Of a stretch of 64,000 bases of DNA, positions 37,219-64,000 are shown one piece after another. Made by a program: the position numbers and the translations under genes. The stretch spans positions 190,650,001-190,714,000 of the forward strand of contig OZ024741.1 of the NCBI GenBank assembly GCA_964016885.1, given 5' to 3'. How positions within the stretch are numbered: position 1 is the first letter of the stretch; each line of letters begins with the position of its first letter. This stretch comes from Eledone cirrhosa. Lineage: Eukaryota. The notes under the pieces were generated by a model. That model was not told where the DNA came from and did no database searches. It saw only the letters and a program-made list of their open reading frames with translations.

Positions 37219-37487
37219 ATATAAATAAATGGAAACTATATTTATAAAACCATATTTATTTTATTATAAATATTTCAAGGGTACCAAAACTTTGGTACAC
37301 TCTCATCAGATAAAATACAAACTTTGTTTTATAAATAGTGACATACCCCAGAAACCAGACCTTATCACTATTTATAAAACAAATTTTGTATTTTATCTGA
37401 TGAGAGTGTACCAAAGTTTTGGTACCCTTGAAATATATATAATAAAATAAATATGGTTTTATAAATATAATTTCCATTTATTTATAT
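37219..37487. repeat. Near-perfect palindrome, ~122-bp arms, ~24-nt spacer
   Basis: Direct reverse-complement match. Confidence 0.95.
37389..37449 (+). ncRNA. Minimal type I hammerhead ribozyme (mirror copy 37257-37317 -)
   Basis: UAUUUUAU CUGAUGA GAGUGUACC..GGUACCCUU GAAA U-auau-A UA AUAAAAUA; 8-bp stem I, palindromic loop 3. Confidence 0.85.
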
Positions 37488-44039: not shown

Positions 44040-45265
44040 TTTTTCTTAACAGTTGTGAAACACTCCACACTTTTTGTTGATCCGGAATTTTATTATAATA
44101 ATAAACAAGAAGATGTAAGGCAGTTGTATAACAACTGCCCTACGTGTTCTCTTCAGACAAAAATCCAAATGAGTTGTAAATATCCATTGATATGTTACCC
44201 ATCATATGTGTTATTTGCTTCACCGACCAGTAAGCATATGTCTGAAATTCTCAACTAGCAGTTCTTATATGTGCGGGAAATACTTATTCCAATTGGTGTT
44301 GTTGCTTGTGAATTGGCTAAGGTATCAAGTTACCAGATTCGTTGTTTGATTCATAGTGAGGCATGTATGAACTGTTAGTCTATTTTTTAATTTTTTTATA
44401 CTAGATTTTATTCACTTAGATACTAATTCTAATTTTAGATATTTGTACTTTGATGCTGATGTTATAATGTATCTATATATTTATGAATGTTTAATTAATT
44501 ATTTGGTGATCTATTTAGTATTATTTACTGAAGTTTTAACTATATACTCTACGAAATGTCTTATTAATGTTGTGTTAACAAGAATTTCAGAGTGTTTATT
44601 AATAATTTTATGCCTAGATCCATTTGTATATGGGAAAGGATGTGAGAGTTTTGACCAAGAAAGGGAGTATTCCACTTGTTTATTTTTTAGCGACCAAATC
44701 AGTTCCGACAGGGCTGTGCTAGATCTTTTATCAGTTGTTTTAAATGAGTGGCGATGGTTGTACCACCTTTCCTTAAATCTAGTATAAGTTGCACCAATAT
44801 ATCTATAAGTCTTACTATTCGTTTTTACTTCACATTCATAAACAATATTTTTTATCTAAACGGTTATTTTGCATTGGGCAACTATTACGATTTCTGTAAT
44901 TGCAATTATTTACATTACCATTCATTGTTCCCTCACTGTCTCTGTGTCCGTTGCTTTATCTCATTTATGTCGAGTTGCTGTTATCCCTGTTATTCGAGTT
45001 GCTGTTTAATCTATCAGTGTTTCTATGCTTGCTATTATCAGTTATCTCCCTATGTTTAATTCCCAGATTTCTATTGATAATTTTTGCTATATTCTGGGCT
45101 ATGCTTTTGGTTGTCGAGTAAGAAAGTTTAATCATGTGTCAATTAAAGATTTGACTGTATATGCATGTGATCTAGGAAAAAATTTATCTAATGCGTTAAA
45201 AAAAGCCTAGCTATGGTTTTTTGTAGTCTAAAGGAGTGGGGTGGATTATACCACAGAACACCACA
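44040..45265 (-). mobile_element. Penelope-like element 3' part: RT thumb/linker and GIY-YIG endonuclease pseudogene plus 3' non-coding region
   Basis: Manual translation: WYNPPHS; CNYRNRNSCPM; NIVYECEV...YIGATYTRFKERWYNHRHSF...STALSELIWSLK; CUGAAGA plus hairpin at 44071-44163. Confidence 0.88.
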
Positions 45266-45269
45266 TGGA

Positions 45270-45427
45270 ACCTTACATACCTAGAACACCGAGGATAAAT
45301 ATGAAAGACCATAAAAATAATTTTGAATCAGATCTACCAGTTAGACTTATAGCACCATCTAAATTCGACAAAGGAATCATAAGTAAGAGCATACTAGACA
45401 GGATTGTACCACAGTTACTAGCAACTA
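45270..45427 (+). mobile_element. Penelope-like RT N-terminal fragment, inverted relative to 44040-45265
   Basis: PRINMKDHKNNFESDLPVRLIAPSKFDKGIISKSILDRI, homologous to 61044-61283. Confidence 0.8.
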
Positions 45428-45503
45428 CCTATGTTTCTATCTATCTTCTGACAATAAATAAAACATATATCTCACTTCCTATTTATCTACTCACCTATTA
45501 CAA

Positions 45504-56335: not shown

Positions 56336-57215
<880 letters not shown>

Positions 57216-57395: not shown

Positions 57396-59701
57396 TCACC
57401 TTGATCACCTTGACCGACCAGTCTGTCGGGCGTCCATTCGGCGCCGCTGATCACAGCACGCCGTCCATTCCTCTCTGTAGTCCTCATCCATGTAGTCCCA
57501 ATCGTATTCTTCAAATCGTAACTCCACTCTACCTAATGGAGGCCTTCCGAATTGTCGTTTCCGCTCACGCGGGTACCACTCGGCAACTGCGCAGGTCCAC
57601 CGATTATCGGTGAACCGGGCGACGTGTCCAGCCCATCTGAACTTGCTGCGCATATATTCCGTGATGACGTCCCTCACGCCGGACTTCTGTCTGATGACTT
57701 CGCTCCTGATGTGCTCTCTCAACGAGATTCCTAGCATTGATCTCTCCATGGCTCTTTGAGCCGTTAGAAACCTCTGCTCTTCTCTCTTCGTTGAGGCCCA
57801 AGTTTCACTGCCATATAACATTGCAGGTAAAACTGTGCTATTGAAGAGGTTGGCGCGCGTGGTCTTGTCCAACCTCCCCTTGAGCACATCCCTTATGCCG
57901 TTAAACGCCTTCCATCCGGCCCTTACTATCCGCGAGATCTCCCTCTCAATGTCTCGGCGCATGTTCACTTCTTGTCCCAGATAGACGTATTCCTCCACCA
58001 CCTCTATTTCATCACCGCCAACCACAATTCGACCTGTTGCTACGTTGTCGGACCTCATGAACTTCGTTTTCATGCGTTCATCTTGAGGCCTACTGCAGAG
58101 CTTTTGATGTCGAGCTCCGTCAGCATTGTCTGAAGCTGATCCGTGGTTTCAGCGATGAGTACGATGTCATCAGCGAAACGGAGGTGGGCAAGTATCTCGC
58201 CGTTGATGTTGACACCGCCTTGCCAGTCAATGCCTCTGATGATCTGCTCGAGACACGCGGTGAAAAGTTTTGGAGAGATCGTATCTCCTTGCTTCACTCC
58301 CTTCTCGACCGGCACTCGTACGGGTGATGACAGCAGAGCTATGTCGGTGGTGCATCCGGAACACGCCTCCCTGAGCAGTTGAACGTATTGCGCCTCGACT
58401 CCTTGCCTCTGCAGCGAGTTCAGCACTGCGTTGATTTCGACGCTGTCGAAGGTCTTCTCGTAGTCTACGAACGCAACGTAAAGAGGCATCTTGTACTCTT
58501 TTGCTCGCTCAAGCAGTTGTGTTAGAGTAAATATGTGATCCATCATGCTGTAGTTTTTCAGGAAGCCGGCTTGCTCTCTCGGTTGCTGTTCGTCCAGATG
58601 ACGTGATAACCTGTTCAGGATTATCTTCGTGAACAGCTTGTACATGTGAGACAGCAGGCATATGGGTCGGTAGTTCTTCAGATCTTCTCTATCGCCCTTC
58701 TTGTATAGCAGGATGGTATTCGACTCTTTCCACTGCGAGGGTATTCTTCCCTCGTCCAGATAGTGTGTGAATCGCTCGGCGAGGATTTTCCAGAGCTGCT
58801 CTCCGCCTGACTTCAACACCTCCGATGTTATGCCGTCTTTCCCTGGCGCCTTTCCGATTTTCATCAAGCCGACGGCTCTTTCGACCTCACCGACAAGGAT
58901 GGGTGGCACATTTTCTTCCTGTTGGAGTGACGGCAACGGCTGCACATTCCCGGCAGACTTGAAGAGCTTGGTGTAGAAGTCTTCGCAAACCTTTTCCACC
59001 TCACTCTTGTCGCTGACCGGTACTCCATCTGTGTTTTTCAGGGTTGTCACCTCCGATCTGTACATTGCCATGTCCCTCTCGCATTTCTTGAGGCTCTTCT
59101 TTTCCTTTGCGGCCTTCAGGAGCTTCTCCATCCAGTATGCCTCGAAGTCTCTCTTCAGTTGTTGACGTATCACTCTGCTGAGAAGGGAATATTCGAGGTG
59201 ATCTTCAGGTGTCCTCTTCATATTCTTCCTCTTCTCAAGCAACTTCATAGTTTCCTCCGAGACTCTTCCCTTCCGCTCCCTCGGGCACACACCCTTAGCC
59301 CTCCTCAAGCACTCCTTCAGTTTCCTTATCAGTAAGTCGTAGTCAGCGTCTATGCCGTCTCCTTGACGACACTTTTCCTGCATAATGGCTTCCTGTAGCT
59401 GCGCCTCGTTGAACACCCGGACGCGTTCTCCCTTCGACGCAAAATGCAGCGCCTTCTTCTCCCACGTCCGGTCGATGACGATCCTCACCCTCACCAGACG
59501 ATGATCACTGCCAGTGTTGAATGGCGTTATGACGGAGTCGTCCTGCAGTATGCGTCGCTTGTCGACCAAGATGTAGTCAATCTCGTTTCGGTGCTCAGAA
59601 TTTAGCGATACCCAGGTCCATCTCTTCTCCTTCTTCTTCCTGAATAGGCTGTTTCCGATGTAGAGCCGTCTCGCCTCCGCCATGGTGACCAGACGCTCTC
59701 C
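57396..59701 (-). mobile_element. RTE-clade LINE 3' portion (APE C-terminus and RT), young
   Basis: EIDYIL, SDHRLV, KAPGKDGI, YRPICLL, QGDTISP, RFADDI; short (tcaaggtga)2 tail. Confidence 0.95.
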
Positions 59702-60500
59702 TGGCGCAGAGGTGACCCTGGCTGTCTGATAGCTATGGTAGCGGGAGTCAATGTCCTGGCAGGTTTTACCATGCTACACAGGTATCAGACTATTGATCCT
59801 AGAGATGATTCATCATCTTCTAGAGTTCAAAAGCTAGCTAAACTGAAGAGGTATCGGCCTGCCCGCCCAGCCAGTGGGATGGCGTCATCTTATGGTTAAA
59901 ACAGCACGAAGAAAAGGGCCTCAGTACCCTGCGCGTCAATCGGGCCACTCCACGACGGCGGAGTGCAATCCGAGCGACGAGAGGCTGCTAAGAATCACAG
60001 GTTCCCGAAGGCTGCCAAGGAACAGGACTAACTTTGCCATATGCACCTACAACGGCAGGTCTTTGGCAGGGTGGCAAGGACTGAACCACCTAATGGAGGA
60101 GAAGAAGAAGATCAGGTGCGACGTGTTAGGGCTGTGTGAGACCCGCCAGAAGAAGGAGGCGAGTTCGCGATGGCAAGATGGATGCGCCTTGAGACTCGGG
60201 AAAGCAGAGGGTGCCAGTTCGGTCGGAGGTATAGGGTTCATCGTAAGCAAGGTATGGGCTTCAAAGGTCGCTTCTTGCCAGTTCATATCGTCATGGATTG
60301 GTGTACTGAACGTGAACCTCTCAGGGAAAGCCACCCTCAAGATCGTCCAGACCTACGCTTCCACAAGTGCCAGCGACGACGATGAGGTGGAAGAATTCTA
60401 TCGCCAGCTAGACAAAGTGCTAGCTGTGAAGTCCACTTACACCATCGTGATGGGAGACTTCAACGCAAAGGTCGGACAGGGACGGCAAGGAGAAGAGTAT
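59700..60500 (+). mobile_element. Inverted 5' portion of the same RTE (5' UTR and APE N-terminus)
   Basis: CTYNGRSL, LGLCET, GDFNAKVG; ends shortly before the residues where the minus part starts (GERLV). Confidence 0.9.
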
Positions 60501-60577
60501 TACTATATATAATATATATATATATATATAAATTAATAAAAACAAAGAAACAGTTCCTTATATTAAAAAAATTCATA

Positions 60578-60703: not shown

Positions 60704-61030
60704 AATTGTTTCTACTTTTGGCACCCTCTAACGATAGAAATAATTGTTTCTACTTTAGGCACAAGCCCAGCAATTACCCAGTGCATTACTGGTACTTTAT
60801 TTTATCGACCCCGTAAGGATGAAAGGCAAAGTCAACATCGGCGGCATTTGAACTCAGATCGTAAAGGGACGTAACTATGCTGGAAAGCATGGCGTCCGAC
60901 CCTCTACTGATACTGCCAATCCACCGCCCTCTATCTACCGATAGAAATAATTGTTTCTACTTTAGGCACAAGGCCAGCAATTACCCAATGCATTACTGGT
61001 ACTTTATTTTATCGACCCCGTCGATAGAAA
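60700..61030 (-). mobile_element. SINE (60740-60930) with partial tandem 3' copies
   Basis: gatagaaataattgtttctacttt-like motif recurs three to four times. Confidence 0.85.
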
Positions 61031-61043
61031 TAATGATATTTGT

Positions 61044-61720
61044 TTATTGAAAAAAAAACCAACAAAGATTTAATATAATAGGTCTAACATTTTTTTTACT
61101 AATGATGCCAATGTCAGATTTGGAAGGGCATATAAGACTTATAGAAGGATTAGAGTTAAAGTTAGATTTGTGATCTTTCAGGTTAAAGTGTGGTTTTTTC
61201 AGTGCCAAAGGTTCAGTTCTATCTTCAATATTGAGTTTATTTACTATGTTGTGTTTTGTTGTTGATATTGGTAAGTGCAGCATTATTTGTTTTTTTTAAT
61301 AATTTTTCCTGAGTTCTTTATAAATGAACTCATTGTAATTATCAATATCCATGTGGTACAGATTTCCAGTTTTGTCAGAGTGGACATGGACTTTGTTAGA
61401 TTTTTTTAGATCCAATAGGGTAGAATCAAGATCCTTTTGAAAATTAGATTTATATTTCTTAAATTTGAGGTGTTTGATTAAGTTAAAAAGGTCTTTCTCG
61501 AAGTTTTCAAGCAAGGAGTTGTGTGGTGGGTTCTTATATGTAGTGAAATCATATAAATATTTCTTATCAGTACATTTTGTTTTTTTTATGAAAGTGGTAG
61601 GCCCTCCATCTGACCCTTTTGATGAATTGGTTGGTTTTTTGTATCATAAGAAGTAAGAATTCATCCTTAGAAGGTATTGGTATATTCTTTAAAGAAGTTT
61701 CCAAGTATTGTTTTTCCATT
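61044..61720 (-). pseudogene. Penelope-like RT N-terminal region, frameshifted
   Basis: SLKNIPIPSK...FIKRVRWRAYHF; FEKDLFNLIK...SDKTGNLY; LKDHKSNF...LICPSKSDIGIISK. Confidence 0.85.
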
Positions 61721-61845
61721 GTAATATGGATAATGGACAAGAAAAAGAGCTCAACTATATACATAGGGAGTTATAAAATTATATATATAAATATAAAAAA
61801 TATATATTAAAATATGAATACCTGTATAAAATTAGGAGCAAAGTA

Positions 61846-62040
61846 TGTAGATAAATCTACCAAAATATACTGTAGTGTTCAATCCGTATGAAGAACTCAA
61901 TGTAATCCAACTATCATGAAAAGAGATGTATTCAACATTTTTTTTCGATGAAAATCACAGGAAAACAGAGTCTTTCATGATATTTGGATTACATTGAGTT
62001 CTTCATACGGATTGGACACTACAGTATATTTTGGTAGATT

Positions 62041-62048
<8 letters not shown>
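61846..62048. repeat. Inverted repeat (~76-bp arms) upstream of the Penelope-like ORF, with decayed hammerhead-like loop (61927-61967 -)
   Basis: Arms are reverse-complementary; loop reads UGUUUUC CUGUGA...GAAA...GUU GAAUACA. Confidence 0.85.
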
Positions 62049-62114
<66 letters not shown>

Positions 62115-62204
62115 GAAGGAGTTGTGGTAAGGAAACAGATGGATCATAACGCACCAAAGTACTCAATACTTGAGGTAGTAGAGTGGGTAATAGGAACCAG
62201 TAAG

Positions 62205-62298
62205 ACCCCGACGGCTGAGCTCAAGCCGTTTCGACGGCTAATTCTGGACTAAATGAAAATTTATCCTGGTATTTAAATAGCCGATCTTCTCAAGGGGT
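62205..62298 (-). ncRNA. Type I hammerhead with compensatory U3-A8 core, GUC site
   Basis: ACCCC UUGAGAA GA-u-CGGCUA...UAGCCG-UC GAAA CGGCU-ugagcuc-AGCCG UC GGGGU. Confidence 0.85.
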
Positions 62299-63564
62299 AA
62301 TTCCATATATGGTCAATGTGATTGTCAAAAGTCAGTAGTAATTCTGTGATTGCAAATTAGTAGGAAAGATGGTGGCTAAACCTGCCAGTAGGAGAAAGAG
62401 GGGAGGGGTGGAGTAGACCCAATCAAGCGTTGGTAGTGCCAGCTACAGCTGGGCATGAGGTCAAAGAAGATACTGGGGAGGGGGAGGGGGAGGAAGTCGG
62501 AACGGTAGGTAGAACAATGAGGAGTAAAAATATATATGAAAGAAAAAATACTGAGGGTGAAGAAAAGCGAATAGGTGTAAAGGAAAAAGTAAAGCAAGTT
62601 CTACGACCTAAGTCTCTAGCTATTGTTAGGCTAGATAAATAAATAAAGAAAGAAAGAAAGAAGTAAAGAAAGAAATAAAGAAATAACGAAATAAGTAAAT
62701 GAACTAGGTGGGACGGAATAGGCAAGGACCCTTTTAAGAGGTATAAGTACGTAAATCATACGGTGACGGGTCAACAAATGGGGCCAAACTACTAAAGAGA
62801 CTACCACGAAATAAATAATAAAGGTTTCTATCCCGGGCCCAATGCCAGCAACCACCCAGTGCAGCAAAGTAAACTAGTACGAGATAATAATTCTGAGTCC
62901 CGAAAAAAATATATACTAATGCTAACTCTAAAAGATCTTAAACAAGCTACATGAAAGTTCGTACGAAGTAAAGGTAGGATACGGAAAAATAAATTCAGAA
63001 TCCACCCCGCCCAAAAGAAAAGCGAAGAAAGAAATACTGAAACGAGAAAATAAGGCGTAAGTGCCACTAAGAAATATAGAAGGCACGGAAAATAGTGGGA
63101 GCGGTCGGAAAAAGGGGGCAAGTATCCGGGGTCTAAACCAACTGCTATAAAAAGCGGAGTCCGCCAAATCTATCATAGACTAGGGGAGGGGTGGGGGTAC
63201 TAAGGCTACAAGGGGCCAAAGGGCAGCCTCGGGTGGGCGAGAAAAGACGCCGACAAAGAAGAAGAGCTGGGGTAGAAGGACTAAGTAGGGATGGGGGGAA
63301 GGAATAAAGGAAGCGATAAAAGAATAAAAAGAAGATCTTACGTCTCCCTTGGCAAGCAGGGGTTACCCATTGCAAAATCGGCAAGTGGGGTGTTATAGCC
63401 CTAGTCTACCCCCCCGGGTCATTATGGGGTTTGAGGGCGAGGTAAGTCCTACGCAAGCTATGTTTACATGCAGTAACCAGTTCATCTTTCTTGTTTAGGA
63501 GTTGGTCCGTCGAAAACAGCATTTGTAAAGTTTCCTCCGAGCATAAATTGCACGGACGGCGTCC

Positions 63565-63885
63565 TATATAGGACTTACCGCATGTGACTTCAAGACCCGG
63601 CTATACCAACATAGACATACCTTCCGAAACCCGGCCCGGCGTCACGCCACTACACTTTCGGGCCACATATGGGACCTCAAGGACAACAACATCACCTATG
63701 ATCTCACTTGGAGATTACTGTCTAGAGCCAATTCTTACACGGGAGGACGCCGTCCGTGCAATTTATGCTCGCAGGAAACTTTACAAATGCTGTTTTCGAC
63801 GGACCAACTCCTAAACAAGAAAGATGAACTGGTTACTGCATGTAAACATAGATTGCGTAGGACTTACCTCGCCCTCAAACCCCAT
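63565..63885 (+). pseudogene. GIY-YIG endonuclease C-terminal half of a Penelope-like element (no start codon; absent from the ORF track)
   Basis: YIGLTACDFKTRLYQHRHTF...TTLSGHIWDLK...CNLCSQE...LLNKKDELVTACKH. Confidence 0.9.
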
Positions 63886-64000
63886 AATGACCCGGGGGGG
63901 GGGGTAGACTAGGGCCAAGGGAGACGTAAGATCTTCTTTTTATTCTTTTATCGCTTCCTTTATTTCCTTCCCCCCATCCCTACTTAGTCCTTCTACCCCA

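Follow-up and report, generated by a model that had tools for sequence, protein, structure and literature searches.

The elements closest to the one described here are the Penelope-like elements (PLEs) of the Hydra clade, with which it shares a single ORF encoding an RT and then a C-terminal GIY-YIG endonuclease, a (TA)n target, a 3' hammerhead and an inverted 5'-truncated copy, the last noted for Penelope-13_HM in PMC8557442. Members of this clade are generally <3 kb and carry a canonical hammerhead in the pLTR, these being general traits rather than strict criteria, and File S2 of the same source gives C3-G8 for all 26 Hydra rows (25 families), with a loop II of 3-10 nt. Insertions made of an inverted copy with a tail on one side only have been described for PLEs (PMC8557442, PMC3846280), and a multimer or re-ligated circle was proposed earlier as their template (PMC4209133). 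The latter source describes the Cercyon PLEs of Schistosoma mansoni, which resemble our family in having U3-A8 (found in about 1,300 Schistosoma PLE motifs), dual motifs on opposite strands and a palindromic loop 3. Cercyon ribozymes, as described there, have no stable helix III and need a dimer, whereas the family here belongs to another clade and is predicted to fold as a monomer with three helices.

For the Anolis Poseidon element PAc, PMC11167929 reports cutting and extension of both target strands in vitro, two internal RNA start sites that bound the tail and are alike on both strands, a predicted dimer, and insertion that ribozyme mutants leave unaffected. Our family resembles PAc in its two internal starts downstream of the ribozyme bounding the tail, in ends that lie off the ribozyme cleavage site and in an AT-rich target; it differs in that its tail is 81 nt and lies in the non-coding leader, and in that its start-site TA can pair with the target, while the use of one end of each kind and a hairpin behind each site are not described there. 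Both the inverted, one-side-tailed PLE insertion and the role of the hammerhead are debated: the later steps in PMC11167929 are unvalidated, and PMC3846280 proposes self-priming. Metazoan non-LTR retrozymes are also alike in carrying a type I hammerhead in head-to-tail tandems and in circular RNA as a possible template (PMC7229834; bioRxiv 10.64898/2026.07.22.740005), but they are non-coding and 170-400 nt long, whereas the unit here encodes a 717-aa RT-endonuclease and is autonomous; that ORF rules out a retrozyme identity.

The window analyzed is a 64,000-nt stretch of the Eledone cirrhosa genome (G000:C2:190650001-190714000). Its last part holds an insertion of ~2.96 kb in (TA)n, formed by two 5'-truncated PLE arms placed head-to-head and continuing past the window end (Table 1). 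Judged from its sequence, the insertion is a truncated two-armed copy of a young, high-copy Hydra-clade PLE.

Table 1. Features of the two-armed insertion, in window positions; plus-signed numbers count from the predicted cleavage site.
Feature	Position	Strand	Remarks
Target microsatellite, left insertion end	62046..62110	.	(CA)n then (TA)n; (TA)n at 62074-62110
81-nt one-sided tail	62112..62192	-	+18 to +98 from predicted cleavage site; stops at end B, into (TA)n
Hairpin A, predicted fold	62159..62184	-	4 bp + 4 bp, 2-nt 3' bulge, then AC
Stretch +1 to +17 past predicted cleavage site	62193..62209	-	End A = 62193, used by the plus arm
Type I hammerhead, predicted	62205..62298	-	Core U3-A8 at 62293-62287
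Non-coding 3' region, 1.1 kb, from ORF stop to hammerhead	62299..63405	-	
Final 52 codons and stop of endonuclease domain (CxxC-E-N-CxH)	63406..63565	-	5' end of B arm
Head-to-head junction	63561..63574	.	14-nt palindrome; 63563-63565 (3 nt) common to both arms
Short-ended A arm, 5' part	63563..64000	+	YIG to stop (63912), 46-nt deletion, then start of 3' region

The first-pass annotation had read a GIY-YIG tail on the plus strand and the same C-terminus inverted on the minus strand, and both readings hold: plus-strand positions 63562-63900 encode YIG...CNLC...LLNK...CKH, a peptide of 113 residues of which 111 agree with the C-terminus of an intact family ORF, and an inverted repeat (63409-63565 / 63744-63900) joins the two copies over 157 nt at 99%, resuming past the 46-nt deletion of the plus arm and past the window end. 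It had also foreseen a mirrored plus-strand hammerhead outside the window; this lies at L031:3964-4057, ~960 nt past the window end, again with U3-A8, and is followed by end A at L031:4069 (G000:C2:190715069), 17 nt after its predicted cleavage site, and then by (TA)n. The non-coding run that it placed between the stop and the minus-strand hammerhead is present, although at ~1.1 kb (63405-62299); its figure of 1.3 kb reaches the (TA)n. Aligned with each other, the two arms give 1,382 columns with 9 mismatches and 5 gaps totalling 59 nt, against 33 and 37 differences to the closest other copies among those fetched. The 81-nt tail is the beginning of the next unit's 5' leader. Hairpin A stands 8 nt behind end A, and hairpin B (+104 in full units) is absent from the window copy. 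Through 5' truncation the window arm keeps the YIG half of GIY-YIG only, the VIY half and the entire RT being gone, and a profile check of the window peptide, proposed with the first reading, gave no Pfam match at E<=0.1. A stretch of ~50 nt in the 3' region (62811-62863) is 74-79% like the start of an abundant short repeat at 60739 and 51835, a match that was not recovered with the main-subfamily copy.

Intact copies elsewhere in the genome show a 3,542-bp unit in natural head-to-tail arrays, in the order hammerhead, 190-nt leader, 717-aa RT-endonuclease ORF (P0001) and 1.1-kb 3' region. Counted from the predicted cleavage site, the ATG is at +191, the stop at ~+2,342 and the ribozyme core at +3,459. 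The window arms are pieces of this unit, which bears out the PLE origin that the annotation had assigned to the inverted-repeat architecture. Partial tandems, inverted 5'-truncated arms and the one-sided tail, all PLE traits, occur in the family. Search counts are lower-bound indications rather than copy numbers: a 301-nt ribozyme query of the genome gave 2,624 first-look candidates, with 40 scored places at 97-100%, and an endonuclease DNA query gave 1,076 candidates. A query with just the 79-nt tail gave no candidates, an uninformative outcome because this sequence is abundant. The best 150 protein matches are all 99-100% identical, many of them within 784-aa open frames, and divergence within the family is about 1%, as in a young family.

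Homologs of P0001 number 74 at 34-53% identity, nearly all without a name. Its structure model (pLDDT 90) has TERTs as best Foldseek matches, with a Z of 17.2 and rmsd of 2.7 over 251 aligned positions for Candida TERT and Z of 14-16 for DGR and other RTs; by its modeled fold the RT is telomerase-like, a further PLE trait. The endonuclease aligns at VIY...YIG, R, H, E and N (alignments A1/A3), in agreement by eye with the published Hydra alignment, and scores 0.95-0.96 to GIY-YIG clusters in the Atlas feature search. Profile support is weak: a Pfam search of full P0001 gave no match, GIY-YIG was recognized by Pfam in 9 of 32 homologs (best E 0.0024), and PDB sequence and PHROGs searches with the endonuclease alignment returned nothing meaningful. 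Despite this, on the aligned residues the domain is a C-terminal GIY-YIG endonuclease. Motifs of the Hydra clade are present throughout: RLRWRT (RWR) in P0001, with RW[K/R] in most homologs, for the RWK motif of a clade in which GxKF/Y is not conserved; DKT, which replaces DKG in the clade, as HSDKTG at 115-120, D117 and K118 being invariant in alignment A1; a linker CNCPDRSIC with five residues between the second and third C (CxCx5C); and CNLC..E..LLNK..CKH, that is, CxxC and CxH round E and N, with no CCHH. The (TA)n target is found at both ends of the window copy and at nearly all resolved ends elsewhere. Compared with PMC8557442 and its alignment, these motifs fit a place in the Hydra clade, as the annotation had guessed.

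Set against the general traits of that clade, the unit is long, at 3.54 kb, because of its 1.1-kb 3' region, and its hammerhead has a variant core and a long loop II. Hydra-1_Obim is a different element (2,507 bp, C3-G8 core, 23 of the first 44 residues alike by eye). The papers searched describe no Hydra family combining U3-A8, a long loop II and a 1.1-kb 3' region. Element class, clade, architecture and core variant are each already published, and U3-A8 alone is a minor variation.

The same window contains several other elements. An ORF fragment at 61044-61770, considered as the element's 5' part, was rejected as such: it belongs to another Hydra-like family, matching P0001 at 46% over the RT. 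Within it, 61095-61719 on the minus strand is a frameshifted 5' fragment of this second family (RWR, DKT), whose intact relatives encode 817 aa, with RT and endonuclease set apart by an asparagine-rich insert, and showed no hammerhead adjoining the ORFs in our scan. A degraded, partly inverted Hydra-like PLE fragment lies at 44613-45453 (27-47% to P0001), and a rearranged RTE-like non-LTR element at 57405-60512 shows another inversion, with its RT on the minus strand (58070-59773, PF00078) and part of its AP endonuclease on the plus strand (59847-60512). At 37266-37440, next to (TA)n, a short head-to-head palindrome contains two hammerhead-like motifs of another family, which have C3-G8 and point outward. 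TA repeats also hold a palindromic insert with 260-nt arms at 100% (56531-57139) and a 209-nt self-complementary piece (61843-62051) that adjoins the two-armed insertion.

The hammerhead at 62205-62298, which the annotation had recognized on the minus strand by its core UUGAGAA, is borne out by folding: the minimum-free-energy structure of the 94-nt motif is a type I hammerhead. Helix I has 5 bp; helix II consists of G10.1-C11.1, a small internal loop, 6 bp and a 39-nt loop; helix III has 5 bp and a palindromic loop; and cleavage is predicted between 62210 and 62209 on the minus strand (GUC site). Published Hydra ribozymes, as given in the source named above, differ in having C3-G8 rather than U3-A8 and a loop II of 3-10 rather than 39 nt, and the 5-bp helix III with its palindromic loop also sets this motif apart. 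The elements of a type I hammerhead are all present (three helices, the 3-8 pair, G12 A13 A14, A15.1-U16.1 and a non-G at 17), and in a 230-nt context pair probabilities of helices I, II and III are mostly 0.7-0.86. Since the fold energy equals that of shuffles (z -0.09) and an Rfam scan of the window gave no match at gathering thresholds, the motif is identified as a hammerhead by its exact core, its geometry and its conservation. C3-G8 cores and palindromic helix III loops are seen in other hammerhead families of the genome (L120, L122, L072).

That U3-A8 is a tolerated change, as the annotation had supposed, agrees with the literature: it is a natural and active covariation (PMC3088659) and is known in PLE hammerheads (PMC4209133). 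The covariation that the annotation expected among family copies did not appear. Of 141 cores, 139 are unchanged, one is C3-A8, one U3-G8 and none C3-G8; the family is too young, at about 1% divergence, for this comparison to be informative. Comparison between families reaches further back. Two sister families in this genome, with proteins about 88% and 72% identical to that of P0001, both keep U3-A8, in 28 of 30 motifs (N7 = C or A) and in 14 of 17 (N7 = U); the motifs lacking it are single damaged copies. With one representative per family, the core is identical at 14 of 14 positions, the helices at 25-27 of 28 and loop II at 20-30 of 39 (51-77%), while the free position N7 drifts (G, C/A and U across the three families) and one pair of helix II, G-C in two of the families, reads A-U in the remaining one, a compensated change and a single event. 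In 17 aligned copies of the three families, 97% of cells are paired, a percentage that leans towards structure because the copies were picked by a pattern in which core and helix II had to be intact. That the three sister families share a conserved fold suggests selection on structure. The annotation's stronger wording, selection for cleavage, thus stands in part: the fold is kept across the three families, but covariation within the family is lacking and insertion ends lie off the cleavage site. A metagenome scan gave 8 loci, three of which are one full-length relative (37% identity) whose ribozyme has C3-G8 and lies 134 nt downstream of the stop codon.

Arms of the family end at two fixed sites past the predicted cleavage site, A (+17) and B (+98), each passing through TA into (TA)n. 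Among 205 matches to the 3' region at 103 loci, chosen independently of the ribozyme, 72 end at A, 85 at B and 28 enter the next unit, by BLAST ends that lie at +20 and +103 because they include the TA overlap. Loose (TA)n ends also occur in public runs, at both A and B in X1 and X4 and at B in X5; these runs are contigs, read here as DNA structure and not as expression or RNA ends. In X1 and X4, contigs cover the 3' half of the ribozyme and the tail tens of times more deeply than the ORF. Breakpoints in loop II (-44 to -31, in the 103 loci) give ~200-bp A+B mini-palindromes and account for 28 of 66 short copies; either transcripts begin in this zone or the RT stalls there.

Pairing of the two ends was read at head-to-head junctions in 9.9-kb stretches around 60 of the 150 endonuclease matches, taken from the top of the list with small contigs, neighbors and loci already in the set excluded, and in 7 loci obtained earlier; the sample thus consists of top-scoring young copies and is not random. 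These 67 loci contain 65 junctions, 58 typed and 7 untyped. The 58 resolved pairs comprise 56 A+B, 2 B+B and no A+A, an excess of A+B over the 50% expected under independent choice (p 6e-15), and the longer arm is A in 30 and B in 26 of the 56. Short two-armed inserts at sister-family loci give 19 A+B in 20, with 1 B+B. Partner arms are closely alike: in 43 pairs the median divergence is 0.25%, against 0.84% to other copies, the own partner is closer than the median other copy in 35 of 43, and rare variants are shared at 2.5 per kb in arm pairs versus 0.13 in random pairs (~19-fold; 5/1,000 in the window pair). This similarity could instead come from gene conversion between inverted repeats. 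Junction overlaps, somewhat generous because BLAST overlaps are set against an exact-match simulation, reach >=2 nt in 34 of 65 cases (simulated 15%) and >=4 nt in 17 of 65 (1.6%); the remaining junctions have 0-1 nt of overlap (10/65) or inserted bases (21/65).

Twin priming by LINE-1 is a parallel in outcome: both target ends prime and the cDNAs join by microhomology, producing an inversion. LINE-1 uses a variable second site and its two pieces share no sequence, whereas the present family has two fixed sites and overlapping arms. Of 17 arms that span the full ORF, 14 run through the upstream cleavage site and on for 27-2,643 nt, 1 ends 3 nt beyond that site and 2 fall short of it. Tandem neighbors differ by a median of 0.18% (22 pairs), which does not decide the template, since it fits a circle and a homogeneous tandem source alike. 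At one multi-unit insertion (L065:7400-10000 with L066:1-741; at about 91.489-91.493 Mb of G000:C1), 55 bp of the PLE ORF have been amplified into a several-kb tandem array at the 5' end, ahead of the inverted arm.

Directly behind A and B, at +26 and +104, the natural unit has exactly two predicted hairpins of one form (two 4-bp stem segments parted by a 2-nt bulge and capped by a loop), where 0.1 such hairpins are expected per shuffled unit; the antisense strand of the unit has none of that form. Both are kept in the 88% sister family and the first in the 72% sister, whose copies did not cover the second. The 37%-identical metagenome relative again has twin hairpins, at L130:58 and 119, each behind TA; they were not found in the neighboring Hydra-like family (3 loci) or in L134 and L278. 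All these hairpins are folds by prediction, weak in energy (-4 to -8 kcal/mol), and they vary little inside the three sister families. The papers searched describe neither a strict A+B pairing nor twin hairpins.

It is fairly probable that the insertion was made by two target-primed reverse transcriptions starting from two fixed sites, one for each end of the cut TA repeat. The GIY-YIG endonuclease would cut in (TA)n and leave two 3' ends; two RT active sites, probably of a dimer, would sit on the like-shaped hairpins just 3' of A and B, and each target end would prime at UA in front of one hairpin. Two antisense cDNAs would then grow, stop independently, anneal via 2-8 nt and be filled in, with a head-to-head repeat carrying a one-sided tail as the outcome. 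The template RNA would be an uncleaved multimer or a re-ligated circle, because long arms cross the upstream cleavage site and because both start sites are 3' of the cleavage site, so that a cleaved linear monomer could template just 17 or 98 nt. The hammerhead would then most likely trim tandem transcripts to unit length for circularization rather than set the insertion ends. We infer the hairpin binding and the circular template from the arrangement above, and take the dimer by analogy from the published Poseidon model only. As both cDNAs cover the same RNA stretch, a single RNA would need strand displacement, or else two RNAs or multimer units would serve. The two B+B cases, the inserted bases at 21 of 65 junctions and the Poseidon start sites, which are alike between strands (PMC11167929), count against this scheme.

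Other origins for the two arms can be envisioned. A cDNA primed at B might snap back and copy itself into a second arm that stops at A, akin to the self-priming model on an antisense template put forward for head-to-head Penelope insertions (PMC3846280). This would account at once for near-identical arms, for junction palindromes such as 63561-63574 and for the A+B rule, yet it predicts a B arm that is always longer, whereas in 30 of 56 pairs, the window copy among them, the A arm exceeds the B arm, often by >1 kb; a snap-back of an A-primed cDNA is unable to add the tail, and later deletions at the palindrome center would be needed for over half of the cases. We regard it as improbable, and the unbiased arm length, with one site per arm, favors two primed cDNAs joined by microhomology. 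Two primings might also take place on separate RNAs of one source locus, with no hairpin-bound dimer, the A+B rule following from order: B would come first, the second nick would be placed by the tail, and arm similarity would partly reflect gene conversion. Such an arrangement avoids strand displacement, fits the arm overlap and allows either arm to be longer, and earlier work cited in PMC11167929 found the tail to be needed for recognition of DNA by the endonuclease; we hold it to be an outside chance, as it leaves unexplained the like-shaped hairpin behind both ends that is kept in distant relatives. An origin as a DNA transposon with MITE-like terminal inverted repeats, which long inverted arms in TA resemble, or as an assembly artefact, to which long-read palindromes may be prone, has next to no probability: breakpoints differ per locus, the outer ends are unequal (A versus B) with both joining (TA)n, the arms differ by indels as well as substitutions, and opposite-strand joints and both ends recur in independent public runs. 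The transposon reading is refuted by this anatomy.

A further question concerns the ribozyme itself. The U3-A8 hammerhead might be non-cleaving, its fold serving as a protein-binding or RT-pausing structure or being carried along as a hitchhiker, which we consider rather unlikely. Insertion ends are never at the cleavage site and templates span it, Poseidon insertion in vitro proceeds with ribozyme mutants (PMC11167929), loop II at 39 nt is far above that of published Hydra ribozymes, and the breaks of 28 of 66 short copies within it would suit such a role. Against it stand the 14 core positions identical in three families while loop II is 51-77% identical and N7 is free (G, C/A, U), and the activity of U3-A8 in vitro reported in PMC3088659.

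The counts from this family are of use because they separate models of PLE insertion: one end of each kind in 56 of 58 pairs, an unbiased arm length and templates that run across the cleavage site. Intact ORFs together with a 130-nt cis region, holding two TA start sites and two hairpins, are at hand for direct tests of the two-site double priming proposed here. Extended to Hydra-clade PLEs at large, it would become an obligately asymmetric double reaction, carried out by a dimer on hairpins 78 nt apart and templated by a ribozyme-cut, re-ligated 3.5-kb circle; this extension is tentative, and we think it somewhat less likely to hold than to fail. If true, the asymmetric double reaction would be the common cause of three traits of Penelope elements (one-sided tail, head-to-head arms and tandems of more than unit length), and the present family, whose intact and identical ORFs are many, would lend itself readily to testing it.
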